A stretch of DNA of 64,000 bases from a candidate division WWE3 bacterium (lineage in GTDB: Bacteria; Patescibacteriota; WWE3; 2-01-FULL-39-13), in NCBI GenBank assembly GCA_943354835.1, contig CALRDH010000001.1, positions 255,298-319,297 on the forward strand, in the 5' to 3' direction. The notes under the pieces are model-generated. The model was given only the letters and a program-made list of their open reading frames with translations, made no database searches and was not told the origin of the DNA. The position numbers and the translations under genes were made by a program. This document shows, piece after piece, positions 2,882 to 53,389 of the stretch. The first letter of the stretch is position 1. Each line of letters begins with the position of its first letter.

Positions 2882-4090
2882 GTGAAATACACTTTTCCAA
2901 AGGATTTTGCTTGGGGAACCGCAACTTCAGCTCATCAAATAGAAGGAAATAATATTAATTCTGACTGGTGGGAATGGGAAGACTCAAAGAAATATTTCCC
3001 CCAAAGAGAGTTTCCTTTGGAGTCATCTGGTATAGCTTGCGATTCATATAATAGATACGAAGAAGATTTTGATTTATGCGTTGATTTAAACAATAATGCT
3101 GTAAGGATTTCCGTTGAATGGGCAAGAATAGAACCGACGCAAGGAAATTTTGACGAAAAGGAAATTGCGCATTATAAAAAGGTATTAAAATCAGCAAGAT
3201 CTCGTGGTTTGAAAACTTTTGTTACTCTTCACCATTTTACAAATCCGATTTGGTTTTCGAATCTCGGTGGATGGACAAATATAAATGCTCCAATTTATTT
3301 TGCAAAATATGCAAAAAAATGTGCAAAAGAATTTAACGATCTAATTGATGTTTATTTAACGATTAACGAACCACAAGTTTATGTCTACATGTCATATTTT
3401 CATGGAATTTGGCCGCCAAATAAAGTAAGCGCTGTTTTATCTTTGTGGGTGCAAATTAATCTAGCAAGAGCGAATAATAAGGCGTATAACGCAATAAAAG
3501 GTAATCATTTTAAAAAAGACGATGCTCCAACGGTAGGAATCGTCAAAAACATTGTTTGGTACGAGGCCTCAAATTCATCGAAAAATCCGCTAGATAAACT
3601 CGTCGCAAGTTTTTTATATTTTATTGGCGGCGATTTTTTCTTCCTTATGATTAGAAATAAATTTGACATAATTGGCCTAAATTACTATTTTACTAATCGT
3701 ATAAATAATCTAAAAACAAAAAACCCAGATGATGTTGTAAATGATTTAGGTTGGTGGATTTATCCGAAAGGACTTTACAATGTTCTTTTATCGCTTAAGA
3801 AATACAATGTTGAAATCTATATAACCGAAAATGGCCTTGCCGATGAGAAGGATGAAAAAAGAATACCTTTTATTCGAGACATGTTGGAATCTTGTGCGAA
3901 AGCCATAGATAAAGGAGTCAATTTGAAAGGCTATTTTCATTGGTCGCTTTTGGATAACTACGAGTGGCACCATGGATTTTGGCCATGCTTTGGTTTAGTA
4001 AAGGTCGATAGGGAAACTTTAAAAAGAAGTAAGCGTCCATCTTTTAAATATTATTCAGAAATTTGTAAAACTAGCGAATTAAAACTGTAG
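2882..4090 (+). CDS. Glycoside hydrolase family 1 beta-glucosidase
   Basis: GH1 catalytic motifs TINEP (acid/base) and ITENG (nucleophile). W-rich GH1 signature. Starts with GTG. Confidence 0.85.
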   Translation: MKYTFPKDFAWGTATSAHQIEGNNINSDWWEWEDSKKYFPQREFPLESSGIACDSYNRYEEDFDLCVDLNNNAVRISVEWARIEPTQGNFDEKEIAHYKKVLKSARSRGLKTFVTLHHFTNPIWFSNLGGWTNINAPIYFAKYAKKCAKEFNDLIDVYLTINEPQVYVYMSYFHGIWPPNKVSAVLSLWVQINLARANNKAYNAIKGNHFKKDDAPTVGIVKNIVWYEASNSSKNPLDKLVASFLYFIGGDFFFLMIRNKFDIIGLNYYFTNRINNLKTKNPDDVVNDLGWWIYPKGLYNVLLSLKKYNVEIYITENGLADEKDEKRIPFIRDMLESCAKAIDKGVNLKGYFHWSLLDNYEWHHGFWPCFGLVKVDRETLKRSKRPSFKYYSEICKTSELKL

Positions 4091-5174: not shown

Positions 5175-5971
5175 GATTTCGATTTAATAAGTTCAAGTCC
5201 GCCGATGATTCCATTTTCTTCACCAAGTTGTGAAATTTCTATACTAGGGTAGCTTTTGAAAGGTTCAAGTGAAGCTAACGTATCCTTTGTTTTTTGAAGA
5301 AAAAGTTGAGATTTTTTTGATAAACTTCCGCCTATAACTATAATATCGGGGCGCCATAGAAGAATAATATTGTGAAGGCCGAATCCAAGGTTTTTACCGA
5401 ATTCTGACCAAATATTTTCGTCATTATATTCTTCAGGCGAGACGCCATATCTTTTTCTGAAAGCAGTTCCAGAACATAGATTTTCAAATGTTTCATTTGT
5501 AGTGTAATTCAAAACGTGATGTCCCGGTTCAAAATTAAATATAGTGTCGGGGATTTTTTTGTTTACAATGATTGAACCTCCAACTCCTGTGCTGATTGTT
5601 ATATACGCGACTCTTGAATAGGTTTTGCCGGCTCCGTGAGTTGCTTCTGCAAGGCTTGCTAAAGCTGCGTCATTCTCTATATATATAGATTTATATTTTG
5701 TGTCTGAAACAATTTCTTCGACGAGTCGGTTATTAAGAAATCCTGCGTGAGGTGAATAGTAAATTCGTTTTTCAACTCTATTTACAAACCCGGCAGCTCC
5801 GATTGATATTGCTTCATACGAAGTATTTGATTCAAGGACGCCTTTGATTTTTGATTGAAGTTCATTGAATGTTTTTGGCGTAGGGAACTTTTGTATATCA
5901 AAAAATTGATTTAAATCTTTTGAAAGTCCTATTTTAGTTTTTGTTCCACCGATGTCTATTGATGCGTACAT
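5171..5971 (-). CDS. Sugar kinase of the ASKHA superfamily (ROK/glucokinase-like or BadF-type)
   Basis: N-terminal phosphate-1 motif SIDIGGTKTKIGL. Size and adenosine motif VIGGS. Confidence 0.65.
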   Translation of the reverse strand: MYASIDIGGTKTKIGLSKDLNQFFDIQKFPTPKTFNELQSKIKGVLESNTSYEAISIGAAGFVNRVEKRIYYSPHAGFLNNRLVEEIVSDTKYKSIYIENDAALASLAEATHGAGKTYSRVAYITISTGVGGSIIVNKKIPDTIFNFEPGHHVLNYTTNETFENLCSGTAFRKRYGVSPEEYNDENIWSEFGKNLGFGLHNIILLWRPDIIVIGGSLSKKSQLFLQKTKDTLASLEPFKSYPSIEISQLGEENGIIGGLELIKSKS

Positions 5972-7035
5972 AGTTTTTCAATTGCCGGAAGTTTTTTTCC
6001 AGCTAAAAATTCTAAAGTTGCTCCGCCAGCAAGGCTGATGTAGGAAATATCAGCCTTGCTGGCGAATTTATCTAGGGCGGCGACTGTGTCGCCGCCCGCT
6101 ACTACAGAAAATCCTCCATTTGATTTGATTTTACATATAGCTTCTACAACTTTTTTTGTGCCATTTGAATATTTTTCTTCTTCGTATTTCCCAAGAGGTC
6201 CTGCCCAAAATACTGTTTTTGATTTTTCTATTATTTCAACATACTTCTCGGTTAACTCTGGGCTTATATCGAATCCATCAATCAAATCAGTAGTGCTTGG
6301 AATTATTATTTTTGTTGCATCTATTTTACTTTTAAGTTCTGAAAGCTCCATTCGTGCTGAATTTACATTTCCTCCAACTAATATCATGTCGGAAGTCTTA
6401 TCAAGGTTTTCCATTTCATCAACTTTTTCTGTGATTTTTGCTCCACCAAATACGATTGTGTATGGTCGCATTACATTTTTTAATAATTTCTCAAGTCCTG
6501 ATACTTCGCTTTGAACATAAAACCCAGCATATGTAGGTAAGTAGTCCATGATGCCTGTCACAGATGCGCTATCTCTATGAGATTGAGGAAATGCATCAAA
6601 AACTATTACGTCAGAACCTGTAGTTAACGTTTTAGCAAAGACTTTTGAGTTTTCGGAATCTTCCTTATAAAAACGTGTGTTTTCGAGCATTAGGATATCT
6701 TTTGGATTCATTGCAATTATTGCTGCTTTAACTTTTTCGCCAACGCAATCATTAAGATGGTAAACTTTAGCTCCAAGTAAATTTGAAAGGGCTTTGGCAT
6801 GTGGTTTTGTACTCAAGCTAGAATCAACTCCATTTGGCCTTCCAACCCAAGTCAAAATTACTATCTTGCAGTTATTTTCGAGCAGATATTTTAATGTTGG
6901 AATTGTCGCTTCTATACGGGAATTGTCTTTAACTACATATTCACCATTAACAAGTTCAGTATCAATATCGTAAGGGGATCTGTATAAAACAGTTTTGCCT
7001 TCAATGTTTGCTGTTAAAAGCGATTTTAATTCCAT
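5956..7035 (-). CDS. pgk: Phosphoglycerate kinase
   Basis: Motifs KIVILTWVGRP, ILMLENTRFYKED, VVAGGDTVAAL and SLAGGATLEFL. Confidence 0.85.
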   Translation of the reverse strand: MELKSLLTANIEGKTVLYRSPYDIDTELVNGEYVVKDNSRIEATIPTLKYLLENNCKIVILTWVGRPNGVDSSLSTKPHAKALSNLLGAKVYHLNDCVGEKVKAAIIAMNPKDILMLENTRFYKEDSENSKVFAKTLTTGSDVIVFDAFPQSHRDSASVTGIMDYLPTYAGFYVQSEVSGLEKLLKNVMRPYTIVFGGAKITEKVDEMENLDKTSDMILVGGNVNSARMELSELKSKIDATKIIIPSTTDLIDGFDISPELTEKYVEIIEKSKTVFWAGPLGKYEEEKYSNGTKKVVEAICKIKSNGGFSVVAGGDTVAALDKFASKADISYISLAGGATLEFLAGKKLPAIEKLCTHQ

Positions 7036-12562: not shown

Positions 12563-13942
12563 ATGTCTGACCGTTTTTACATTACAACTCCAATTTATTA
12601 TGCGAATGATGTTCCACATATTGGACACACAGGAACAACGATTTTTGCAGATATTATTGCAAGATATCAAAGATCGCTAGGTAAGGACGTCTTTTTTCTA
12701 ACAGGAACCGATGAGCATGGTGAAAAGGTTGCAAAAGCAGCGGAGAGTGCAGGAAAGAATCCACAGGAATTTGTCGATGAACTTGCATTAAAGTGGCAAG
12801 AATACTGGAAAAAATTAAATATAAGTAATGACCAATTTATGCGAACGACGCTGCCTGGGCATGAAAAGGTTGCTCAAGAATTACTCGTTTTGCTTCAAGC
12901 AAAAGGCGACATCTACAAAGGTGTCTATAAAGGCATTTATTGTTGGGGATGTGAGGAATTCAAATCAGAAAAAGATTTAGTCGATGGAAAATGTCCAGAG
13001 CACAGGCCTGATCAAGTTGAATATCGTGAAGAAGACAATTACTTTTTTAAACTTTCAAAATATATTCCGCGTGTTAAGGATCTAATTGAAAGCGGTGAAC
13101 TTTCTGTTGAACCAGAAAATAAGAAGGCCGAAATGTTGGCAAGAATAGAAGGTGGCGTTAATGATTTGTCGGCTTCTCGTCAAAATGTTACGTGGGGAGT
13201 TCCGATTCCTTGGGATACATCGCATACAACATATGTTTGGATTGAAGCTTTAATGAACTATTATTCTGCAACAAAAATTTGGAATAAAGAAGGATTTTGG
13301 CCAGCGGATGTGCATTTTCTTGGAAAGGGTAATAACTGGTTTCATTCCGTGATTTGGCCAGCACTTTTATTGGCTTTGGATTTGCCTTTGCCAAAAAGGG
13401 TTTTTGTTCATGGATATTATAATGTTGAAGGTCGAAAAATGGGTAAATCTTTGGGAAACGTTATATCTCCTGGGGAATTAATGGATAGGTATGGGGTAGA
13501 TGGTACAAGATATTTGCTTGCTGCAAGCATGCCATATGCTGATGACAGCGATGTAAGTATGAAATGGTTTGATGAAAAATTCAATTCTGATTTAGCAAAT
13601 GGCTTGGGGAACTTGGTTTCAAGAGTGGCGAAGTTCGTAAATGGGGGTAGCCCCTCAAAAGAAAGGGTAGCCCTTATTAATACATACTATGACAATTTTA
13701 AGCTAAACGAGGTTATTTCTGAATCCCAGAAGCTTGTTAAGTTCGTTAATGACTATTTTAGTAGTGAAGCACCTTGGAAGCTTGAAGGCGATGCTAGGAA
13801 AGTTGTTATAGACGCAGCGGTTGAGAAAATAATTGAAATCGCAAATCTTTTAGAACCGGTTATGCCGGAGTCTTCATCAGAAATTAGAAAAATATTAAGT
13901 GGAGAAGTCCCATCAAAAAATCTTTTTATGAGAATTGTTTAG
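12563..13942 (+). CDS. metG: Methionyl-tRNA synthetase, short form
   Basis: PIYYANDVPHIGH (HIGH), KMGKSLGN (KMSKS), CWGCEE…CPEH zinc knuckle. Carries an in-frame G/C-rich insert at 13643-13677. Confidence 0.9.
   Translation: MSDRFYITTPIYYANDVPHIGHTGTTIFADIIARYQRSLGKDVFFLTGTDEHGEKVAKAAESAGKNPQEFVDELALKWQEYWKKLNISNDQFMRTTLPGHEKVAQELLVLLQAKGDIYKGVYKGIYCWGCEEFKSEKDLVDGKCPEHRPDQVEYREEDNYFFKLSKYIPRVKDLIESGELSVEPENKKAEMLARIEGGVNDLSASRQNVTWGVPIPWDTSHTTYVWIEALMNYYSATKIWNKEGFWPADVHFLGKGNNWFHSVIWPALLLALDLPLPKRVFVHGYYNVEGRKMGKSLGNVISPGELMDRYGVDGTRYLLAASMPYADDSDVSMKWFDEKFNSDLANGLGNLVSRVAKFVNGGSPSKERVALINTYYDNFKLNEVISESQKLVKFVNDYFSSEAPWKLEGDARKVVIDAAVEKIIEIANLLEPVMPESSSEIRKILSGEVPSKNLFMRIV
13643..13677. 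repeat. 35-nt G/C-rich element GGGGTAGCCCC-N9-AGGGTAGCCCTTAT inserted in-frame in metG; near-identical copy inside the gene at 187-2268
   Basis: Direct sequence comparison with 1045-1077. The two copies are read in different frames in the two host genes. Confidence 0.6.
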
Positions 13943-39637: not shown

Positions 39638-40285
39638 ATGGCCAGAAAAGAGAGTAACAAAAATACCCAAAAGGTAAGCTTCCCAGAACTATTCCAGTTT
39701 ACAGTGATAGAGATGTTCAGTCCTAAATCTGATAAGTCCCTTATTGATTATAATTCGTTAAAGCTGATAAATACTAAAGAATTAGCATTTTTGAATAAAT
39801 CACAGCTTCGTTTTTTTGTTGAATATATTGGTGCTTTCTTTATAACGATTAACTTATCTGTTTTAGCTATGTTGTTTTTGGTTGACTTTAATGGCGTAAA
39901 AAGCGTAGCTCCAAGACAGGTTGCACAGGCATCTGCACCAGTTACAATCGTTGCTGCAACTCCTGCTTCCGCTTCGAATGTTTTAGGAATCAATTCTGAT
40001 TCAAATTCTTTTGGACTCGATAGTTGTTCATTTTCAGTAAACGATGTTATGTATTCATCCCAATCAGAAGTAAGTCTTCGTGGTTTGAAAACTTTATGCG
40101 TTAATCATTCCGTTAAAAATGGGTCCGTTTTGTGGCAGGTCAACATGAAAGATGGTGAGAATCTTGTAATGAAAGGCGATTGTGTGAGTTTTGGAAATCC
40201 ATCAATTGTCAAAAGTATTGAAACTTATATTATAGATTCTTCAAACATTAATAGTGCGTCGTGTGAGTTAGGTTTTTCAAAGTAA
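39638..40285 (+). CDS. Hypothetical secreted/membrane-anchored protein
   Basis: TM segment at ~aa 55-80. No other motif. Confidence 0.35.
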   Translation: MARKESNKNTQKVSFPELFQFTVIEMFSPKSDKSLIDYNSLKLINTKELAFLNKSQLRFFVEYIGAFFITINLSVLAMLFLVDFNGVKSVAPRQVAQASAPVTIVAATPASASNVLGINSDSNSFGLDSCSFSVNDVMYSSQSEVSLRGLKTLCVNHSVKNGSVLWQVNMKDGENLVMKGDCVSFGNPSIVKSIETYIIDSSNINSASCELGFSK

Positions 40286-40420
40286 TCATGACAATAAAGC
40301 TTTATTTATACATATTTTCTTCAGTATTCTTATTTGTATTCTCTCTACTCTCAATCCCATATGCGATTTCGGCGAACGTCGTTTCCATCGCCTCTGCAAA
40401 TACTGATGTGAATATGTGCA

Positions 40421-40450
40421 TTGACCAACGCCTGTAATTATTGTTAGAAT
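40421..40450 (+). promoter_or_regulatory. rRNA promoter candidate (TTGACC, 18 nt, TAGAAT)
   Basis: Near-consensus hexamers ~90 nt upstream of the 16S 5' end. Confidence 0.5.
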
Positions 40451-40537
40451 GGCGCAGTCACAAATTTAGTAGCACTTTAACAATTTAAGAGTCAGCAATA
40501 TATATCGGTTTTTGAATGGTGAAAAGAATTTTATTTA

Positions 40538-41990
<1,453 letters not shown>

Positions 41991-42167
41991 AAGGAGATTA
42001 AAAGGAAGGTTTAAAAGCTTTCCAAACTTACGAGAAGCTTAGTCGGCTTTCGTATTTTACAAGGAAAATTTCTCACGATCTTTTCTAGACAGCTTAACAA
42101 CAAGAGGCTTAAAAGTTGTAGACGAGTTCTTTTCACCGCTTAGAGACTGATATATTGCAAAATCCAA

Positions 42168-42193
42168 AAAGAGTCCGAAAAGGCTCTTTTTTT
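42168..42193 (+). terminator. Rho-independent terminator-like hairpin downstream of 16S (AAAGAGUC-CGAAAA-GGCUCUUU plus U-run)
   Basis: 8-bp stem followed by TTTTTTT. Confidence 0.5.
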
Positions 42194-42217
42194 AGTTTTT
42201 GATGTACTGTTTTCGCA

Positions 42218-42745
42218 ATGACTGATTCAAATAAATCAATTAAAATTCCAAAGCTCACAAGATTCCATCAATTATTAGATAAAGCACTTGAACCAGTAAT
42301 GGTGGTATTAGGAGGATTTGATGGCGATTCTCTACAGGAAACCCACGTGTGGCATACAATAAGAATGGACCCGAGTCTTATTGATCTTGATCTTACCGTT
42401 GAGGTTCCTGGATCGGTAAGTGCTAGAGATTATAAAAATAGGTTTGATCCTCGTTTTCATATTCCAGCTATTGATGGTTGGGGTTGGAATGACTATGTTG
42501 TGCTCGCTCCAAAGTTAGAAAATCTAGAGCCTTGGCATATAGGTTGGCATAAAGTTAGAGATAATGAGCTTTTTTTATGTAAATTACATTTAAAACCAGT
42601 TGAAGATTATGCTCTCAAGTTATTAAAAGGGCCCAATAACAGTTCTTTTTTTGCATTCACAAGCGGTGGCAGTCAGATTCCATTAAAATTCCTTGATGAA
42701 GGTCGACATGGTGATAAAAAATATTCAAAATTAAGATTGTTTTAA
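42218..42745 (+). CDS. Hypothetical 175-aa protein encoded in the 16S to tRNA-Ile spacer
   Basis: Clean ORF with ATG. No LAGLIDADG/GIY-YIG/HNH motif and no recognisable family. Confidence 0.45.
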   Translation: MTDSNKSIKIPKLTRFHQLLDKALEPVMVVLGGFDGDSLQETHVWHTIRMDPSLIDLDLTVEVPGSVSARDYKNRFDPRFHIPAIDGWGWNDYVVLAPKLENLEPWHIGWHKVRDNELFLCKLHLKPVEDYALKLLKGPNNSSFFAFTSGGSQIPLKFLDEGRHGDKKYSKLRLF

Positions 42746-42784
42746 TTTTGGTATAATTTCAACGTTCGGTTTGTTAGTACTTCT

Positions 42785-42861
42785 CGGGCGATTAGCTCAG
42801 GTGGTTAGAGCGCTAATCTGATAAGTTAGAGGTCCATGGTTCGAGTCCATGATCGCCCACC
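42785..42861 (+). tRNA. tRNA-Ile (anticodon GAU)
   Basis: Manual cloverleaf: acceptor GGGCGAU/AUCGCCC, anticodon loop CUGAUAA, T-loop UUCGAGU, encoded CCA. Confidence 0.85.
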
Positions 42862-42876
42862 AGTTATACTCCGTAT

Positions 42877-43449
42877 ATGAAAGTTCAAAAGAGATTTTTT
42901 AAATATTGTTTTGTATTCCTTTTAGTGTTCTTTCTTGTAAACATTTTCGCAATTGTTCTTTTTGGACATTTTGATAGGGTTCGGAATGCAGATGTAATAA
43001 TTGTTTTGGGAAATAAGGTTGAGATGGATGGGAAACCTTCTGAAAGGCTTATGTCGCGTCTTGATAAGGCTTTAGAACTTTATAATTCTGGATATTCGTC
43101 CAATATCTTTGTTAGCGGAGGCCTTGGCAAAGAGGGTTATGAAGAAGTCGAAGTTATGGAGCAATTTCTTTTAGAAAATGGAGTTCAAAAGTTACATATC
43201 CATAAAGATTATCTTGGTTTTGACACAGAGCAATCAGGTTTAAATTTAAAATCCTATATGGATGAATTTGGTTATAAATCGGTTATTGTTGTTTCGAATT
43301 TCTATCATATTCCAAGGTCTGTAATGTTCTTCAAAAAGCTTGGAATTAAAGACACCTATAATTCTCATGCAAATTATTATGAGATTAGGGATGCTTATTC
43401 TTTGGTCAGGGAAGTTTTTGCTTTTTATGATTACTTGGTGTTAAGATAA
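42877..43449 (+). CDS. DUF218 (YdcF/SanA/ElyC-like) domain protein
   Basis: N-terminal TM plus DUF218 core DVIIVLGNKVEMDGKPSERLMSRLDKALELY…FVSGG. Confidence 0.65.
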   Translation: MKVQKRFFKYCFVFLLVFFLVNIFAIVLFGHFDRVRNADVIIVLGNKVEMDGKPSERLMSRLDKALELYNSGYSSNIFVSGGLGKEGYEEVEVMEQFLLENGVQKLHIHKDYLGFDTEQSGLNLKSYMDEFGYKSVIVVSNFYHIPRSVMFFKKLGIKDTYNSHANYYEIRDAYSLVREVFAFYDYLVLR

Positions 43450-44052
43450 TTGTTCTATTATCTCTATATGAAAATCGCAAAATCCAATATCTCCGAAATT
43501 TCAGATGCTCTCCTTTCTGGTTCCGTCGGCATTATGCCTAGCGATACTGTTTATGGTTTGTTTGCAATGGCTATGAATTCCAAGTCTGTTGAAAGGATTT
43601 ATTCGATTAAGAAGCGTGATTTGGATAAGCCTTTTATTGTTTTGATTTCTGATATTTCCGATTTGGAGCTGTTTGGAATTAAAGCGTTTGATTATCAGTC
43701 TAGGTTTGTAAATAAATATTGGCCTGGACCTTTAAGCTTGATTTTTGACTGTAAAAATCCGGAATTCGAATATCTCCATCGTGGAACAAATTCTTTAGCT
43801 ATAAGAATGCCTAAAGATGACTGGTTGTTAAATATTCTTCGTAAAACCGGTCCGCTTGTCGCGCCATCTGCAAATCTTCAAGATTCTCCGACAGTAAAAA
43901 ATATAGGTGAGGCGATTGAGATTTTTGATGATGCTGTCGATTTTTATGTTGATGGTGGAGAAATCGTCGGCGAGCCTTCTACTTTAGCAAAATTCAATGG
44001 AGACAAACTTGAGATATTAAGACTTGGGCAGTTAAAAATCGAATATCCTTGA
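43450..44052 (+). CDS. tsaC: L-threonylcarbamoyladenylate synthase (YrdC/Sua5 family)
   Basis: YrdC motifs …MPSDTVYGL…, KKRD.DKPFIVL. Confidence 0.75.
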   Translation: MFYYLYMKIAKSNISEISDALLSGSVGIMPSDTVYGLFAMAMNSKSVERIYSIKKRDLDKPFIVLISDISDLELFGIKAFDYQSRFVNKYWPGPLSLIFDCKNPEFEYLHRGTNSLAIRMPKDDWLLNILRKTGPLVAPSANLQDSPTVKNIGEAIEIFDDAVDFYVDGGEIVGEPSTLAKFNGDKLEILRLGQLKIEYP

Positions 44053-44064
44053 TACAATTGCACT

Positions 44065-44670
44065 ATGATTTCCCTTTCTAAATCCAAAGAGCTTCACTTA
44101 AAAAAACTAGCAAGTCTTGTCGAAGAAAAATCTAAAGTTGTAAACATCACAGCCATTCGTGATTTTGATGGTATTTGGGAAAAGCATGTTTTAGATTCTT
44201 TGGAGTTTTTGAATACAGAGTTTTTTAAAACGCATACTAATGAGAAGTTTACTTATATGGACTTTGGAACTGGGGCTGGATTTCCTGGGCTTCCTTTGGC
44301 CATAATGCTTCCTGATTCAAAGTTTTCACTTGTAGATGGAACTAGAAAGAAAGTTGAAATCGTTAATGCGTTTGCAAATGAATTAGGTTTAAGTAATGTT
44401 CAAACAATTTGGTCAAGAGCAGAAGACCTTGATCGTAAGTTTGAAATTGTATTGGCAAGGGCAGTGAAATATTTGCCTGAACTTTTAAAAACTGCTGTTG
44501 AATTTGTTTCTAAAGATGGGTACATCGTTGCATACAAAATGTTAAATGATGAAGAAATAAAAGCCGGAGACGACGTTTGTGGGGAGATTTCACTTGTTAA
44601 GGTTGAAGAATATAGATATTCGTTAAGCGGTCAAGATCGTGTGATTTTGATATACCAGAAAAAATCCTAG
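44065..44670 (+). CDS. rsmG: 16S rRNA (guanine527-N7)-methyltransferase
   Basis: GidB/RsmG motifs DFGTGAGFPGLPLAI, SLVDGTRKKVE. Confidence 0.8.
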   Translation: MISLSKSKELHLKKLASLVEEKSKVVNITAIRDFDGIWEKHVLDSLEFLNTEFFKTHTNEKFTYMDFGTGAGFPGLPLAIMLPDSKFSLVDGTRKKVEIVNAFANELGLSNVQTIWSRAEDLDRKFEIVLARAVKYLPELLKTAVEFVSKDGYIVAYKMLNDEEIKAGDDVCGEISLVKVEEYRYSLSGQDRVILIYQKKS

Positions 44671-44689
44671 AAATGATAGAATCGGTTTA

Positions 44690-45706
44690 ATGCCTGTAAT
44701 TGATAAATATCTTTCATATATTTTCGAAAATGGATTTAGTGATCTTCATATTATTCCGGATGTTCATATAATCGGCCGGATTGATGGTGATTTGGTAAAA
44801 ATATCAGAAGATAAATATACCAATGCGGATTTGGAAAAGGTTTTATTTGAAATTATTCCGCAAGGCGATAAAGATTATCTTAACAAACACTTTAATCTAG
44901 ATTTTTCATATGAGGTTCCAGGTGTTTCAAGGTACAGGGCAAATTATTATTGGCATAATGGTGGAATCGGCGCGACTTTTAGAGTAATTCCTAAAAAAAT
45001 ACCAACAATATCAGAACTTGGTTTATCAGAGGCTTCGCTTAGAACAACTCAATTTAAAAACGGCTTAGTTTTAATAACAGGACCGACTGGTTCAGGAAAA
45101 ACTTCTACAATGGCTGCGCTTTTAAATTACATAAACATAAATAGACCTGCTCACATTATTACGATCGAAGATCCAATTGAATTTGTTCACCAAAATGACA
45201 AATTAGGTCTGGTCAGTCAAAGAGAACTTGGAAAGCACACAAAAAGCTTTTCAAGCGCGCTAAGAGCAGCCTTAAGAGAAGATCCAAACGTAATAATGAT
45301 TGGCGAAATGCGAGATATGGAAACAATAGAGTTGGCTATCACAGCAGCTGAAACCGGACATTTAGTTTTTGCATCGCTTCATACTAATTCAGTTGCAAAA
45401 ACCGTTGATCGTTTAGTCGATGTATTTCCAAACGAAAGCAAAGGCGAAGTTAGGGCTTTGCTTGCTGATACGTTAAGAGCAGTTTTATCTCAAACACTTG
45501 TTAAACGTGCAGATGGAAAAGGCAGAATTCCAGTTCAAGAGATTATGTTTGTAAATCATGCAATTTCAAATTTAATTAGGGAAGGTAAATCTTTCCAAAT
45601 CGATGATGTTATACAAACAAGTATGAAAGACGGAATGCTTTTAATGTCTAATGAAATGCAAAGATTAACAAAAGAAGGCAAGATCGGCGTAGAAAAAATA
45701 GCTTAA
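44690..45706 (+). CDS. pilT: Type IV pilus retraction ATPase
   Basis: Walker A GPTGSGKTST, Asp box EDPIEF, Walker B/His box IGEMRDMETI…ETGHLVFASLHTNS. Confidence 0.8.
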   Translation: MPVIDKYLSYIFENGFSDLHIIPDVHIIGRIDGDLVKISEDKYTNADLEKVLFEIIPQGDKDYLNKHFNLDFSYEVPGVSRYRANYYWHNGGIGATFRVIPKKIPTISELGLSEASLRTTQFKNGLVLITGPTGSGKTSTMAALLNYININRPAHIITIEDPIEFVHQNDKLGLVSQRELGKHTKSFSSALRAALREDPNVIMIGEMRDMETIELAITAAETGHLVFASLHTNSVAKTVDRLVDVFPNESKGEVRALLADTLRAVLSQTLVKRADGKGRIPVQEIMFVNHAISNLIREGKSFQIDDVIQTSMKDGMLLMSNEMQRLTKEGKIGVEKIA

Positions 45707-45710
45707 CCTT

Positions 45711-46601
45711 TTAATTTATTTTTGATTTAAGATACTCTTTGAATTTCTGATTATATTCTGGATTTTCGAGCGCTAAGTCTATTGATGTTTGAAGATAATT
45801 GATAGGATCTCCAGTAGTTTTCCATTCTCCGCTTATTGGTTTTACGAGTACTGTTTTTTCTTTTGCCATTCTGTGGATAGCATCTACCATCCAAAGCTCA
45901 CTATCTTTTCCAAGATTTGATGGCGTCGGTTCTAGGTAATTGAAGATTTCTGGTCGTAAAAGATATCCGCTAAAGCTAACTAGGCTTGAAGGGGATTCTT
46001 CTTTTGATGGTTTTTCGATTATGTAATCAAGAACATTTTCAGTTCCTTCTTTTATTTTGATCATTCCATATTTTGTCACGTCGATATTTGGAAGATCTTG
46101 TGCTGGGATTACGCCGTATACATCATCACCGCTGTTTTCGTAGACTTCTATCATTTCTGTTACTCGGGATTTTCCGAAAACCAAATCGTCTGTGTAAATA
46201 TAAACGAATGGTTCGTTTCCAATGTATGGTCTTGCAGAAATTGCAGGTGAGCCATTTCCATATGGAAGATTATTATCTTGTGTAATGACGATTATATTTG
46301 GAAGGCTGAATACTTGGCTAACTTTTCTAAATCTTTCTTCTTTTCCTTGCTTTTGAAGCTGTTGGTAAATATGTTGAACTGTATTGTGAAAATAATCTTC
46401 ATAAATGGATTGTCCTTCTTTTGTTGCGACAATTATGATTTCAGTTATTCCTGCGACCATGCATTCTTCGACAATATAATGCGTAATCGGTTTATCTAAA
46501 ATCGGAATCATTGACTTTGGAAGAGTTTTTGTAATAGGCAAGAATCTTGTTGCGTAACCTGCGTCTGTTAAAACAGCTTTTCTGACTTTTTGTTTTTCCA
46601 T
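45711..46601 (-). CDS. galU: UTP--glucose-1-phosphate uridylyltransferase
   Basis: N-terminal KAVLTDAGYATRFLPITKTLPKSMIPI and sugar-binding region. Confidence 0.8.
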   Translation of the reverse strand: MEKQKVRKAVLTDAGYATRFLPITKTLPKSMIPILDKPITHYIVEECMVAGITEIIIVATKEGQSIYEDYFHNTVQHIYQQLQKQGKEERFRKVSQVFSLPNIIVITQDNNLPYGNGSPAISARPYIGNEPFVYIYTDDLVFGKSRVTEMIEVYENSGDDVYGVIPAQDLPNIDVTKYGMIKIKEGTENVLDYIIEKPSKEESPSSLVSFSGYLLRPEIFNYLEPTPSNLGKDSELWMVDAIHRMAKEKTVLVKPISGEWKTTGDPINYLQTSIDLALENPEYNQKFKEYLKSKIN

Positions 46602-46795
46602 TGAGTCGAAATATACAGCGAACTTTATACTGGTGTCAATTAGTTGGAAAATAGTTGATGCTGTCTATTGTAAATTCGTTTTTGCTGTAGTATATTTTCG
46701 TCCATACAGTTAACGTTGTTGATCAACCTCTTAACATTCCGTATTATATATATCGTAAGGCCAAGAAAGGCTTTAGAAAAAGCCGGCAGAATTTT

Positions 46796-46871
46796 GGGCC
46801 GGTAGCTCAGCTGGTAGAGCGCTACATTTGCAATGTAGAGGTCATGGGTTCGAATCCCATTCGGTCCACCA
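46796..46871 (+). tRNA. tRNA-Ala (anticodon UGC)
   Basis: Manual cloverleaf with diagnostic G3:U70 pair, anticodon loop UUUGCAA, encoded CCA. Confidence 0.9.
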
Positions 46872-46977
46872 GTTTGTAAATCATGGCTTACGATAAGCGG
46901 ATTTTCGCTCTTTAACAACTGAATAGATTATTTAAAGGGGCAGCCACCTTAAAAGGGCTACCCCGATATTGTAAAAA

Positions 46978-49890
<2,913 letters not shown>

Positions 49891-49986
49891 TCTTTTTTAC
49901 AAATAATCTATTCAGCATTTAGAGAGAGAATGGGCGATGGGACGAGGCTCTATAGCCTTCGCCCCATCACTATCTAATGAGTATAA

Positions 49987-50104
49987 TGCTGGTGATTCTA
50001 GCGACGTGGAACAACCTCTTCCCATTCCGAACAGAGTCGTTAAACGCGTCAGCGGCGAAAATAGTGTTTTGGCAACGAAATGCGAAGATAGCTCGTCGCC
50101 AGCA
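49987..50104 (+). rRNA. rrf: 5S ribosomal RNA
   Basis: Helix I UGCUGGUGA/UCGCCAGCA closes the molecule. Loop motif CCCAUUCCGAACAGAGUCGUUAAACGC. Confidence 0.8.
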
Positions 50105-50146
50105 TTATGCTCAGTAGAAAGAGTTTATATAGTTTTAATTTTTATA

Positions 50147-51244
50147 ATGTCAGAAGTTCCCACAAATAATTTATCGGATTTAATTAAAAAGCATTCAAAG
50201 CAAGTTAAGGTTTTTTCAACAGGCGCTGTAATCGAAGGCGTTATTGTTTCAATAGATAAGAAATATGTTTTAGTCGATGTCGGAGCAAAATCTGAAGGAA
50301 TGATTCCAACAGAAGAACTCAAACTCTTGCCTGATAGAGATGTTAAAGTTGGAGACAAAATAACATCTATTGTTGTACAGCCAGAAAATAGACAAGGTAA
50401 TTTAATCCTTTCACTTAAAAAAGCTAAATCTCAACATAATTGGTCATCCTTAGATGTCGTTTTCGAATCTGGAGAACCAATTGAAGTTACAATTATTGAT
50501 TACTTAAAAGGTGGTTTAATTGTTGATACAAACGGGCAACGAGGTTTTGTTCCAATTAGTCATCTAAATCGCGTTCATTTTGAGCAATTCAATATTGCAA
50601 TGGCTGAAGGTACAAGTTCTGACTCTGCACAAAATCTTGGTGGTTTAAAAGGTACGACAATGCAGGTAAAGATTATAGAAATTAATGCAGAAAAAAATAG
50701 ACTCGTAATGTCAGAAAAAGAAGTAATGTCAAAGGAAGAGGCAGCTTCAAAAGATAGAAGATTAGCTGAAGTAAAAGAAGGCGACGTTATAGATGGAACT
50801 GTTTCGACTGTACTTCCATATGGCGTATTAGTTGATTTAGGCGGAATAGACGGTCTTGTACATATTTCAGAAATTGCATGGGAAAAAGTTTCAGCTCCAA
50901 AAGATTATTATAAACCAGGAGATTCTATTAAGGTTAAGATTATTGGAAAAGATGAAGACAAAATAGCTTTATCAGTAAAAGAACTTAAAGATAATCCATG
51001 GAATAAAGTAGAAGAAAGATATCCTTTAGGCAAACGCGTAAAAGCAACTGTTTCTAAAGTCGTACCATTTGGAGCGTTTATCGAACTTGAACCAGGACTT
51101 GATGGACTTATTCATATATCAGAGACTGTTGGTCCATTAAATGTTGGTGATGAAGTAGAGGCTGTTGTCGTTAATGTTGATTCTAAAGATCGTAAACTTG
51201 CCTTAAGCATAAGACAGATCGAAGATTCAAAAATCTACAGATAA
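50147..51244 (+). CDS. rpsA: 30S ribosomal protein S1 (four S1 domains)
   Basis: Repeated S1 OB-fold motifs (G.V.G.V…G.G.LVH.SE…). Start set at ATG 50147; ORF-track 49937 start would overlap 5S. Confidence 0.8.
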   Translation: MSEVPTNNLSDLIKKHSKQVKVFSTGAVIEGVIVSIDKKYVLVDVGAKSEGMIPTEELKLLPDRDVKVGDKITSIVVQPENRQGNLILSLKKAKSQHNWSSLDVVFESGEPIEVTIIDYLKGGLIVDTNGQRGFVPISHLNRVHFEQFNIAMAEGTSSDSAQNLGGLKGTTMQVKIIEINAEKNRLVMSEKEVMSKEEAASKDRRLAEVKEGDVIDGTVSTVLPYGVLVDLGGIDGLVHISEIAWEKVSAPKDYYKPGDSIKVKIIGKDEDKIALSVKELKDNPWNKVEERYPLGKRVKATVSKVVPFGAFIELEPGLDGLIHISETVGPLNVGDEVEAVVVNVDSKDRKLALSIRQIEDSKIYR

Positions 51245-51256
51245 CATTGAACATAA

Positions 51257-53389
51257 ATGCAGAAAATCGATATTCTCGACCGTTTGTCAGAAAAAAGTGT
51301 TCAGTTACTTCGTGAATTAAATCCTGATTTATCTGAAATTAAAGACATCAAAGCCGGTGAAGCAATATCTCTTATGTCAAAAGATAGCGAAGAAATTGCA
51401 CAGGTTCTTCGCGAATTAAAAGTCTCATCCAAATCGAAAAAGAAAATAGATATCGCTGATTGGATAATAAACGCATATAGCGAAGCGTATGTTACGGATT
51501 CAAAAACAGTTGAAGTCCAACATTTATTATTATCTTTGCTACTTGGAATTGATGTTCAAAAATATTACCTCGCAAAACGTAAGATTAATCTAAATATACA
51601 AACATCAAGACAGGGCTATCTTACTAAATATGTCGAGGATTTTACTGAAATAGCCAAAAAATCAAAAACATCCATTTTGTACGGAAGATCAAAAGAATTA
51701 ATACACCTTATGGTCAATCTTTCAACCAAGGGGGGTAAGCCGACCTTGCTAATTGGTGGTTCCGGATCTGGAAAAACAACATTAATGAAAGAACTAGCTC
51801 GTAAAATAGTTGAAAATGATGTTCCAGCCGAACTTATAGGATCAAGAATTCTTGGTATAAAACTTTCAGGACTTGTGAATTCACTTCCAATTGAAAACAA
51901 TACATTGCAAAGTGGCATGCTATCGAGCCTTTTTTCAAGTATTGCTGAAATGAATAAAGATCAATATACAAAAACGATTTTGTTTTTTGATGATCTAAAT
52001 TATGGTGTTAATTTTTTTGTAGGGATTGAGTCTGCTTATCTTTCAAATGATATTTTATTTGTTGGTGCAGCAAGAGATGACAACAGTGAAAAGTTTTGGG
52101 AAAGTCCTATTTCAAAGATGTGGAATATCATCTTTTTGGATGATCAAAGCGATAAAGAAGTTAAAGAAATACTTGTGAATTATGGCAAAAAGGTTAAAAA
52201 GAAAAATAATATTGAATTTTCAGCTGATTCTATAGGCAAAATTGTTGAAATAAATAAAACTGATTTAGCGAATGGTGATGTTATGCCTGGTGCAGGAATT
52301 AAGATGATGGATCTTTTGGCAACATACAAAAGACATGTAATTAGCAATTCCTTGGACCTAGATTCTGAATCGAATGTAATTACATCTTTGGATGTTGACA
52401 CCTTTTTTAATGGTCAAAATTTTGATTCAAAGGATAAATCATCAACAAGTAGAATATTGAATGATAAGCTTGAATCCCTCGAAGATTCGATTAAAAAAGA
52501 AATTATTGGTCAGGATAATGCAATTTCTTTATTGGTTAGTTCGCTTAGAGTTTCTAGCCTAAAATTACACAGTGAACCTCGTCCTGTAGGAACTTTTTTA
52601 TTCTTGGGTCCGACTGGAGTTGGAAAAACTCAACTTTCAAAGGTTTTAGCAAGGCAACTTTTTGGATATAAAGAAGGAACAAAAAAACATCCAGATAAAT
52701 TCCTAAGGATTGATATGACAGAATATTCAGAAAAACATTCAGTTTCAAAATTATTTGGCGCGCCACCTGGATATATTGGTTATGATGATGGCGCCTCATT
52801 ATGTGATTTTGTTTCCGAAAATCCTAATTCTATTGTTCTATTTGATGAAATAGACAAAGCTCATCCTGATGTTCTTAATTCTTTGCTTCATATTATGGAT
52901 GAAGCTGAAATAAGAAGTAATACAGGGGATATGGTCTCATTTGAAGAAGTTATTATCTTGATGACAAGCAATCACGGCGCAAATTTAATAAATTCACATG
53001 AAATTGGGTTTTCAAATGATAAAAATACTCATTGGAAAAATGATCTTAAAACTTACTTAAAGAAGCAATTAAAACCAGAATTTTTGAATAGATTTGATGA
53101 AATAATAATATTTGAGCCGTTAGGCGAGGAGTCATTATTAAAGATTACTGATTCTATTGTTAATCCAATTATAAAAAGTTTGTCGGCAAGGAATATAGTT
53201 TTGAAAGTTTCACTCTCGGTAAAGAGATATTTGGTTAAAAAATCAGGTACAGAATATGGTGCAAGAGAACTTAGGCGTGCGATTAACCGTGATTTAATAG
53301 ATCCTATATCAAAAATCATTTTAAGGTCTAAGGATGTTTCAGAAATCAGGGTATCATATAAGAATGGAAATTTATCTTTTGACAGTTAA
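51257..53389 (+). CDS. Clp/Hsp100-family AAA+ ATPase (ClpC/ClpA-like) with degenerate first nucleotide-binding domain
   Basis: D1 Walker A GGSGSGKTT with atypical Walker B. D2 GPTGVGKT, DEIDKAHPDV, sensor GARELRRAINR. Confidence 0.7.
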   Translation: MQKIDILDRLSEKSVQLLRELNPDLSEIKDIKAGEAISLMSKDSEEIAQVLRELKVSSKSKKKIDIADWIINAYSEAYVTDSKTVEVQHLLLSLLLGIDVQKYYLAKRKINLNIQTSRQGYLTKYVEDFTEIAKKSKTSILYGRSKELIHLMVNLSTKGGKPTLLIGGSGSGKTTLMKELARKIVENDVPAELIGSRILGIKLSGLVNSLPIENNTLQSGMLSSLFSSIAEMNKDQYTKTILFFDDLNYGVNFFVGIESAYLSNDILFVGAARDDNSEKFWESPISKMWNIIFLDDQSDKEVKEILVNYGKKVKKKNNIEFSADSIGKIVEINKTDLANGDVMPGAGIKMMDLLATYKRHVISNSLDLDSESNVITSLDVDTFFNGQNFDSKDKSSTSRILNDKLESLEDSIKKEIIGQDNAISLLVSSLRVSSLKLHSEPRPVGTFLFLGPTGVGKTQLSKVLARQLFGYKEGTKKHPDKFLRIDMTEYSEKHSVSKLFGAPPGYIGYDDGASLCDFVSENPNSIVLFDEIDKAHPDVLNSLLHIMDEAEIRSNTGDMVSFEEVIILMTSNHGANLINSHEIGFSNDKNTHWKNDLKTYLKKQLKPEFLNRFDEIIIFEPLGEESLLKITDSIVNPIIKSLSARNIVLKVSLSVKRYLVKKSGTEYGARELRRAINRDLIDPISKIILRSKDVSEIRVSYKNGNLSFDS

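Follow-up and report, generated by a model that had tools for sequence, protein, structure and literature searches.

An opened ribosomal RNA locus in a candidate division WWE3 bacterium, probably read as several separate transcription units

In the canonical ribosomal RNA (rRNA) operon, of the Escherichia coli rrnA type, the 16S, tRNA-Ile, tRNA-Ala, 23S and 5S genes follow one another on one strand, with helices formed by the flanks of the rRNAs and with antitermination boxes (boxA) in the leader and before 23S. The long 16S and 23S flank helices of E. coli are substrates of RNase III. The two tRNAs lie tens of nucleotides apart, in a spacer that holds only tRNAs and is typically shorter than 1 kb. 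Here we describe the rRNA locus found in a stretch of 64,000 nucleotides from a candidate division WWE3 bacterium (contig CALRDH010000001.1 of assembly GCA_943354835.1; the whole stretch is called the window). This locus has the gene order, the single strand and the flank helices of the canonical operon, with boxA-like boxes in the leader and before 23S, but its tRNAs are 3.9 kb apart, a terminator-like hairpin follows 16S, promoter-like sites precede the tRNAs, one gene in between is on the reverse strand, and rpsA comes after 5S. Judging from the sequence of the locus and of its relatives, we consider it likely that the WWE3 rRNA genes are divided among several independent transcription units and do not form one operon.

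rRNA genes count as unlinked when 16S and 23S are more than 1500 bp apart; such genes are common and cluster phylogenetically, and the Patescibacteria are among the clades named (Brewer et al., bioRxiv 10.1101/705046). With a gap of 4983 nt between the end of 16S (41989) and the start of 23S (46973), the window locus therefore falls under this definition, and the split is phylogenetically conserved, being present in seven further WWE3 lineages and in a fosmid described in 2008. Low G+C and compact gene packing are associated with the trait, and the window organism has both. However, the cases of Brewer et al. are separated by about 410 kb on average and mostly fully dispersed, whereas in the window the genes are still side by side, in canonical order on a single strand. 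Each spacer tRNA there stays with "its" rRNA, and the cargo changes within a fixed flanking synteny. Separate 16S and 23S-5S units are also found in the small A+T-rich genomes of Buchnera, Wolbachia and Rickettsia, and the 16S units of Buchnera include open reading frames (ORFs) (PMC7761764). The window differs from these reduced symbionts in keeping the local gene order. In the symbionts the two units lie far apart, and the spacer tRNAs are not known to have been kept in place.

In the opened rRNA region of Borrelia burgdorferi, three transcripts were found by reverse transcription PCR, namely 16S-tRNA-Ala, tRNA-Ile and 23S-5S (Bugrysheva et al. 2011, PMC3037291). As in the window, 16S is detached from 23S-5S though still close to it, and the two spacer tRNAs are separated. 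Protein genes presumably lie between these two tRNAs in Borrelia as well. On the other hand, tRNA-Ala follows 16S in Borrelia, tRNA-Ile stands alone and 23S-5S is tandemly duplicated, while in the window tRNA-Ile follows 16S behind a terminator-like hairpin and would head an mRNA, tRNA-Ala would lead the 23S unit, and rpsA follows 5S. Because tRNA order, cargo and phylum all differ, there is no common descent of the two arrangements, and the resemblance is one of layout and not of homology. By analogy, the Borrelia transcripts lend some support to separate units in WWE3.

Within WWE3, fosmid DIGA11YD11 carries 16S, a NUDIX hydrolase and two hypothetical coding sequences (CDS), tRNA-Ile, a CDS, tRNA-Ala, 23S, 5S, rpsA and radA (Guermazi et al. 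2008, PMC2702496, Table 4). The genes are listed there without discussion of their arrangement, and the word "operon" is absent from the paper. The fosmid shares lineage and frame with the window, and its NUDIX protein before tRNA-Ile is placed as in one of the relatives compared below (L091); unlike the window, it has three CDS between 16S and tRNA-Ile and only one (about 330 amino acids) between the tRNAs.

RNA genes were located in the window with Rfam and ARAGORN, and protein genes as ORFs combined with family scans (Pfam, NCBIfam). One complete set of RNA genes was found, all on the plus strand:

40531-41989, plus strand: 16S rRNA, 1459 nt (RF00177, 1347 bits, model positions 1-1533, full-length)
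42786-42862, plus strand: tRNA-Ile(GAU) (Rfam, ARAGORN)
46796-46871, plus strand: tRNA-Ala(UGC) (Rfam, ARAGORN)
46973-49900, plus strand: 23S rRNA (RF02541, 2469 bits, full-length)
49988-50104, plus strand: 5S rRNA (Rfam), with its own flank helix

The 16S gene is short, yet it matches its model in full, which fits the reported loss of helix H17 from all WWE3 16S rRNAs (Guermazi et al. 2008, PMC2702496). When the entire spacer was searched with Rfam at relaxed settings, the two tRNAs and nothing further came up. With the protein genes included, the order is 16S, terminator-like hairpin, an ORF of 175 amino acids (ORF175), tRNA-Ile, a DUF218 protein, TsaC, RsmG, PilT, a GalU-like protein on the minus strand, tRNA-Ala, 23S, 5S and rpsA. 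The interval from 16S to 23S thus contains six protein genes, five on the rRNA strand and one on the other, and the two tRNAs are 3933 nt apart. A first-pass annotation of this stretch had given the same gene identities, the same order and a tRNA separation of about 4 kb, all correctly as checked by Rfam, ARAGORN and the family scans.

Breaks and joins in metagenome assemblies classically fall on rRNA genes, and a second copy might exist elsewhere. The locus could thus combine two loci fused at rRNA or tRNA repeats, or be a decaying additional copy in a genome that also has a canonical operon; both objections had been raised in the first-pass annotation. We give them hardly any probability. 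The exact RsmG protein was also found on a 5645-bp contig of the independent Logan assembly of run ERR5863117, and this contig equals positions 41826-47470 of the window at 100% identity, from inside 16S through the six genes (the TsaC gene being called there too) and both tRNAs into 23S. As the independent assembly reproduces all junctions, mis-assembly is effectively excluded. So is a decaying copy, because the rRNA genes are full-length, matching their models end to end with high scores, and the layout is kept in relatives, namely in the physically cloned 2008 fosmid and, in data of JGI, ENA, NCBI and Logan, in at least seven other lineages; the processing helices are also intact and covarying. 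The opening of the WWE3 rRNA operon is real, old and conserved.

The relatives are contigs around RsmG homologues at falling identity, on which rRNA and tRNA genes were located by Rfam, ARAGORN and blastn, so that lineages with RsmG elsewhere or missing are not evenly sampled. The nearest named RsmG homologue is 83% identical and comes from a candidate division WWE3 bacterium (Patescibacteria, or candidate phyla radiation). A search of metagenome contigs with the window RsmG gave three relevant loci, all of the L083 type. A profile search of genome contigs with the RsmG alignment gave, among the matches listed, unrelated Bacteroidota and Firmicutes loci (L003-L082). The outer limit of the sample is marked by L094 (P0039; RsmG 38% identity), a genome from outside WWE3 where the usual gidA-gidB pair has no rRNA genes in its neighbourhood.

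As far as the contigs reach, the loci L083/84/86, L087, L088-90, L091/92, L093, L104 and L102 all present 16S (where included), tRNA-Ile, protein genes, tRNA-Ala, 23S, 5S and rpsA. The full WWE3 frame reads 2-hydroxyacid dehydrogenase, TrxB-like protein, mnmA, an ORF, 16S, tRNA-Ile, the inserted genes, tRNA-Ala, 23S, 5S, rpsA, clp and radA, and it is constant down to about 85% 16S identity, while the cargo varies. The two intervals compare as follows:

Window: 16S to tRNA-Ile 796 nt, with ORF175; tRNA-Ile to tRNA-Ala 3.9 kb, 5 genes
L083 (GCA_002789015.1), 16S 98.6% identical: 16S to tRNA-Ile 346 nt, no gene; tRNA-Ile to tRNA-Ala 9.5 kb, 14 genes
L087: 16S and the 16S to tRNA-Ile interval outside the contig; tRNA-Ile to tRNA-Ala with 5 genes and an extra tRNA
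L088, 16S 85% identical: 16S to tRNA-Ile 329 nt; tRNA-Ile to tRNA-Ala 8.7 kb
L091, 16S 86% identical: 16S to tRNA-Ile 887 nt, with a NUDIX gene; tRNA-Ile to tRNA-Ala 7.4 kb
L093, 16S 86% identical: 16S to tRNA-Ile 1306 nt, with a reverse-strand gene; tRNA-Ile to tRNA-Ala 11.0 kb
L104, 3' end of 16S only: 16S to tRNA-Ile 1293 nt, with a reverse-strand gene; tRNA-Ile to tRNA-Ala 6.6 kb
L102: RsmG, UDPGP, tRNA-Ala and 23S

The uncoupling of 16S and 23S is therefore the same in seven further lineages. The first-pass annotation had spoken of an "invaded" operon; the insertion is real, but it is neither recent nor specific to this genome, being an old WWE3 trait that was already visible in the 2008 fosmid.

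Each rRNA in the window is enclosed in a helix of its own. In an unbiased inverted-repeat search of positions 40000-51500, the 16S, 23S and 5S flank helices were among the five longest pairs:

40495-40530, plus strand: 5' strand of the long helix enclosing 16S (40500-40528 in the inverted-repeat search)
42124-42158, plus strand: 3' strand of the 16S helix, conserved block GAATTCTTTTCACC (42127-42155 in the inverted-repeat search)
46908-46934, plus strand: 5' strand of the 23S helix, including boxA (46904-46933 in the inverted-repeat search)
49901-49926, plus strand: 3' strand of the 23S helix (49901-49930 in the inverted-repeat search)
49970-49995 and 50096-50121, plus strand: 5S flank helix (inverted-repeat search)

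The 16S helix measures about 30 bp in all five lineages aligned and has an invariant core (GGUGAAAAGAAUU / GAAUUCUUUUCACC); in its distal half both strands differ among the five lineages with the pairing kept, meaning that it covaries. For the 23S helix, the outer part of which is formed by boxA itself, 96% of cells were paired across four lineages with three compensatory pairs, compared to 30-50% in slid controls.

The promoter-, terminator- and boxA-like signals found around these helices are:

40421-40450, plus strand: 16S promoter-like site TTGACC-N18-TAGAAT, with TG before the -10 (promoter scan)
40471-40483, plus strand: boxA-like box AGCACTTTAACAA in the 16S leader, two mismatches to the E. 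coli boxA consensus
42166-42199, plus strand: intrinsic-terminator-like hairpin (42166-42191), 10 bp followed by T7, directly 3' of the 16S helix
42749-42757, plus strand: extended -10 promoter-like site TGgTATAAT, 29 nt upstream of tRNA-Ile
46610-46639, minus strand: galU promoter-like site TTGACA-N18-TATATT, 11 of 12 positions, the best match in the scanned region
46668-46696, plus strand: tRNA-Ala-23S-5S promoter-like site TTGTAA-N17-TATATT
46708-46735, plus strand: conserved leader block AGTTAACGTTGTTGATCAACCTCTTAAC, with a small hairpin and boxA-like CTCTTAAC (alignment and fold)
46906-46918, plus strand: boxA CGCTCTTTAACAA, one mismatch, the best consensus match in the whole window

The 16S promoter-like site aligns in L088, L091 and L093 as TTGAC[CG]-N17/18-TA[GA]AAT. 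The terminator-like hairpin has counterparts with compensatory changes at the same position in L083 and L101, and L091 presents a different hairpin with a T run there. An extended -10 (TGnTAtAAT) lies 20-30 nt upstream of tRNA-Ile in the window, in L083 (TGTTATAAT) and in L088 (TGGTAAAAT). The site before tRNA-Ala is identical in L083, reads TTGTAA-N17-TATAAT in L088 and L093 and TTGACT-N18-TAATAT in L091, and together with the leader block it is common to five lineages. The boxA-like box of the 16S leader is a direct repeat with the spacer boxA (repeat search) and is partly kept in the alignment of relatives; the spacer boxA is kept in L083, L088, L091 and L093. The total count of boxA patterns in the window is not above chance, and it is position and conservation that support these boxes.

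Two further observations concern the leaders. The tRNA-Ala leader (46717-46740) shares 20 of 24 bases with 5S (50005-50028), and none of 300 shuffles scored as high; this likeness is shared by L083 and missing from L088 and L091, could be due to chance or to a remnant or mimic of 5S, and was not used in our argument. In L083, tandem units of about 40 nt (GGGTAGTGCGTTAGCACGTTACGTCCGACGAAAGTCGGA) occupy positions 1250-1345 upstream of the 16S leader, and the 16S promoter is farther off than in the window.

The terminator-like hairpin after the 16S helix, the conserved promoter-like sites, the opposite-strand galU and the separate helix on each rRNA all argue for separate units. From the observed gene order, its conservation and the covarying helices and boxes we infer promoter and terminator activity and transcript boundaries as follows. 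The ancestral 16S-tRNA-Ile-tRNA-Ala-23S-5S operon would have been opened in WWE3 on both sides of tRNA-Ile, towards 16S as well as towards tRNA-Ala, with housekeeping and accessory genes gained and lost in both intervals since. The first unit would comprise a promoter, the boxA-like box, 16S in its processing helix of about 30 bp and an intrinsic terminator. The second would start at the extended -10 promoter and include tRNA-Ile and a DUF218-tsaC-rsmG-pilT mRNA, the tRNA being cut out of an mRNA that it leads; ORF175 lies upstream of this promoter, without a convincing promoter of its own. The third would be galU, converging on pilT from its own promoter on the opposite strand. The fourth would run from a promoter and leader through tRNA-Ala, boxA, the 23S helix, the 5S helix and rpsA, probably into clp and radA, with no terminator in between. 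On this reading, 16S and 23S would be kept in balance by the similarity of their promoters and leaders and not by co-transcription.

Perhaps the locus still works as one operon, with a single precursor running from the 16S promoter to 23S-5S (and rpsA), boxA antitermination passing the hairpin at 42166, and the protein genes expressed from the pre-rRNA. There are boxA-like boxes in the 16S leader and before 23S, as in canonical operons, and all spacer genes but one lie on the rRNA strand. However, galU would be antisense to such a transcript, converging on pilT with a gap of only 4 nt to the pilT stop, and some relatives have 7-11 kb and several reverse-strand genes between the tRNAs. The conserved promoter-like site and leader block before tRNA-Ala, the hairpin and T run held by compensatory changes, and the complete helix on each rRNA also argue against a single read-through operon, which we regard as distinctly improbable.

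Several points nevertheless weigh against separate units. The promoter and terminator calls are consensus matches, and they are no more numerous in the scanned region than in shuffled sequence (27 versus 26.8 for promoters, 8 versus 9.1 for terminators), so that the case rests on their position and conservation. The terminator-like hairpin is of modest strength (-9.9 kcal/mol, z -1.7), and L088 and L093 have no evident counterpart; for this reason we rejected the terminator by itself as proof of separate units. The covariation counts come from four to five distinct lineages, and boxA-type antitermination could carry some polymerases from 16S into ORF175 and tRNA-Ile. Finally, the window contains one rRNA locus, and a second one elsewhere in the genome is formally possible.

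The protein genes in and around the spacer are:

42218-42745, plus strand: ORF175, lineage-restricted, no family
42877-43449, plus strand: DUF218 protein (SanA/ElyC-like), starting 15 nt past tRNA-Ile (ORF and family scans)
43468-44052 (alternative TTG start 43450), plus strand: TsaC/Sua5 L-threonylcarbamoyladenylate synthase (TIGR00057, 147.8 bits, cut-off 123.2)
44065-44670, plus strand: RsmG, 16S rRNA m7G527 methyltransferase (TIGR00138, 118.7 bits, cut-off 99.5)
44690-45706, plus strand: PilT-family type IV pilus retraction ATPase (TIGR01420, 406.6 bits, cut-off 319.1)
45711-46601, minus strand: GalU-like sugar-1-phosphate nucleotidylyltransferase (TIGR01099, 198.9 bits, cut-off 326.8)
50147-51244, plus strand: rpsA, ribosomal protein S1 with four S1 domains, 42 nt past 5S

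The sugar nucleotidylyltransferase is called GalU-like because its TIGR01099 score is under the GalU equivalog cut-off. The DUF218, tsaC, rsmG and pilT genes are tightly packed 3' of tRNA-Ile, with gaps of 0-19 nt. Upstream of 16S are mnmA and then a 215-amino-acid ORF without an assigned family, and downstream of rpsA there is a Clp-type ATPase gene, with radA next to judge by the relatives.

ORF175 had no match in Pfam (even among hits with E below 1), NCBIfam or PADLOC, and only two homologues were found among 5.8 billion proteins. One of them, 52% identical (L101), likewise lies 3' of a 16S gene and is preceded by the same helix strand, the terminator and a 1052-amino-acid ORF without known function. 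Blocks of the protein are kept at the amino-acid level, including an invariant C-terminal GDKKYSKLRLF, which argues that ORF175 is a genuine gene. An AlphaFold2 model built on the three-sequence alignment was unusable (pLDDT 39). The gene found between 16S and tRNA-Ile differs almost lineage by lineage, from ORF175, NUDIX and the 1052-amino-acid ORF to LAGLIDADG and reverse-strand ORFs. The LAGLIDADG homing-endonuclease ORF was seen just past 16S (5542-5991) on a longer ENA contig of the L087 lineage (P0016; RsmG 70% identity).

At the other end of the locus, rpsA has its true start at 50147, the S1 domains beginning at about residue 75 of a longer ORF. The 42-nt spacer between 5S and rpsA is unstructured, without a hairpin and without room for a promoter, and the adjacency is kept in L083, L088, L091 and the 2008 fosmid. 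Co-transcription of 5S and rpsA, which had been called probable in the first-pass annotation, is plausible on these grounds. Since the 5S flank helix extends, with its 3' strand, to 25 nt before the rpsA start codon, processing of 5S on such a co-transcript would cut directly at the leader of rpsA.

Between the tRNAs, the constant core of the cargo is RsmG, present in all seven lineages with readable cargo, and a convergent UDP-sugar pyrophosphorylase. L083 has the five genes of the window, likewise ordered, and in addition small ORFs, genes for a cell-wall hydrolase and a phosphoribosyltransferase, and two PIN toxin modules; that of L088 includes PolA, Fpg, RsmG, GalU and proteins without known function; and among the relatives as a whole there are DNA polymerase I, Fpg, NUDIX, PIN toxins, a cell-wall hydrolase and radical SAM proteins. 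The reverse-strand pyrophosphorylase is of the GalU type (PF00483) in some lineages and of the UDPGP type (PF01704) in three others, after rsmG:

L093, 10676-12061: PF01704 UDPGP enzyme
L102, 1689-3089: PF01704 UDPGP enzyme
L104, 6394-7764: PF01704 UDPGP enzyme

The two families are unrelated, and their occurrence at one position looks like an in-place replacement by a non-homologous enzyme of similar function. In L087 (RsmG 70% identity), a well-formed 72-nt tRNA with anticodon UUA, which would read the UAA stop codon, lies at 3958-4029 between galU and tRNA-Ala (Rfam tRNA, 63 bits), followed by a 14-bp inverted repeat; it has no counterpart in the window.

The first-pass annotation had drawn a functional link from rsmG and tsaC to the products of the locus. 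It may be that RsmG (16S G527), TsaC (t6A37 of tRNA-Ile) and MnmA are kept here by selection so that their expression follows rRNA and tRNA, which could coexist with separate transcription units. The constancy of RsmG fits this, as does the placement of mnmA two genes upstream of 16S in every locus reaching that far, and the genes stand directly 3' of the tRNA promoter. For tsaC the link does not hold beyond the closest clade: the gene lies between the tRNAs in the window, L083 and L087, and is absent from there in L088, L091, L093 and L104. The other constant resident, the pyrophosphorylase, has no link to the ribosome, nor do pilT, galU and DUF218 have one to rRNA; the cargo elsewhere is as mixed as described above; the single CDS between the tRNAs of the 2008 fosmid is too long for RsmG; and the sample was collected through RsmG. 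Selection for placement therefore seems doubtful to us as a general explanation. It is possible for rsmG and perhaps for the upstream mnmA, and is unsupported for the remaining cargo.

Because tRNA genes are common integration sites, we also considered that the block might be a recently acquired mobile island integrated at a tRNA gene. The difference between 5 and 14 genes at 98.6% identical 16S, the two PIN toxin-antitoxin pairs among the extra genes of L083, and the small palindromic elements at differing sites in the two loci would fit such an origin. But the family scans found no integrase, transposase or recombinase among the spacer proteins, and no partial copies of tRNA-Ile or tRNA-Ala that would resemble att repeats were found in the window spacer; the disrupted tRNA-Ile half copy seen in L083 adjoins the intact gene. 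The spacer block has a G+C of 0.35, the same as its surroundings. The five housekeeping genes keep the order of relatives, and their proteins are as similar between the window and L083 (75-85%) as the flanking proteins are (54-93%), which fits vertical descent. With no integrase, no att repeats, native composition and vertical-looking divergence, a mobile island is very improbable.

The opened locus might instead serve as a dedicated platform for gene exchange and expression, with the near-invariant 16S and 23S genes as long homology arms, cassettes swapped among relatives by DNA uptake and recombination, and the residents placed on rRNA-grade promoters. This would explain the 5 versus 14 genes in the window and L083, though we hold it to be improbable and put it forward tentatively.

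The small palindromic elements also bear on a G/C-rich hairpin that the first-pass annotation had noticed between tRNA-Ala and 23S and had assigned to a motif family, CCCCGATA, seen inside protein genes. The hairpin is real:

46937-46964, plus strand: G/C-rich hairpin, a degenerate copy of the GGGTAGCCCC palindromic element

The family as then defined is weak. The CCCCGATA 8-mer has five matches in the window against 0.74 expected, but two of the five are inside the G+C-rich 23S and inflate the excess, and we rejected it in favour of a short G/C-rich GGGTAGCCC(C) repeat and palindrome family, which occurs as direct pairs in window genes and as perfect palindromes in the L083 rRNA spacers. In the window, GGGGTAGCCCC-N9/10-AAAGGGTAGCCCTTAT lies inside two protein genes in different reading frames (1044-1078 and 13643-13678). 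The hairpin is absent from the same site in L083, where perfect palindromes (GGGTAGCCCC-loop-GGGGCTACCC) are found at three other places of the rRNA locus:

L083, 12582-12612: GGGTAGCCC(C)-type palindrome
L083, 16029-16061: GGGTAGCCC(C)-type palindrome
L083, 16259-16292: GGGTAGCCC(C)-type palindrome

The partial copy of the tRNA-Ile 5' half in L083 (3147-3230; nucleotides 1-22 and 23-38), which closely precedes the intact gene, is interrupted by a 46-nt insertion containing the GGGTAGCC motif, which is related to the palindromic element. There is thus a small family of G/C-rich repeats that changes position, its copies occupying differing sites in the window and in L083. It resembles a small mobile element of the REP or MITE kind with a tolerance for in-frame insertion.

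Unlinked rRNA genes had already been described, in Patescibacteria too, and the gain from this locus is therefore incremental. What is new is the comparative picture of two variable intervals, a constant core of RsmG and pyrophosphorylase and rpsA behind 5S, together with the small palindromic elements colonising the spacers and the conserved signals, which suggest separate units. There are also practical consequences. Long-amplicon typing across 16S, the internal transcribed spacer (ITS) and 23S, and operon-based binning of rRNA, will miss or mis-size WWE3, because its "ITS" is 5 to 14 kb long and contains protein genes; assemblies, too, will often be interrupted here.

In the organism itself, the locus has most likely ceased to function as a single operon. 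If it is an exchange platform, mRNAs led by a tRNA (from tRNA-Ile to rsmG) and by rRNA (from 5S to rpsA) would couple the ribosome-modifying enzymes and protein S1 to the synthesis of rRNA, in a bacterium that has very few regulators. WWE3 offers a natural example in which the canonical order is kept while co-transcription has probably been lost, with a promoter-like site, a boxA-like box and a helix for each rRNA. An mRNA that would start with a tRNA, and rpsA directly behind 5S, make it a test bed for how rRNA stoichiometry may be held without an operon.

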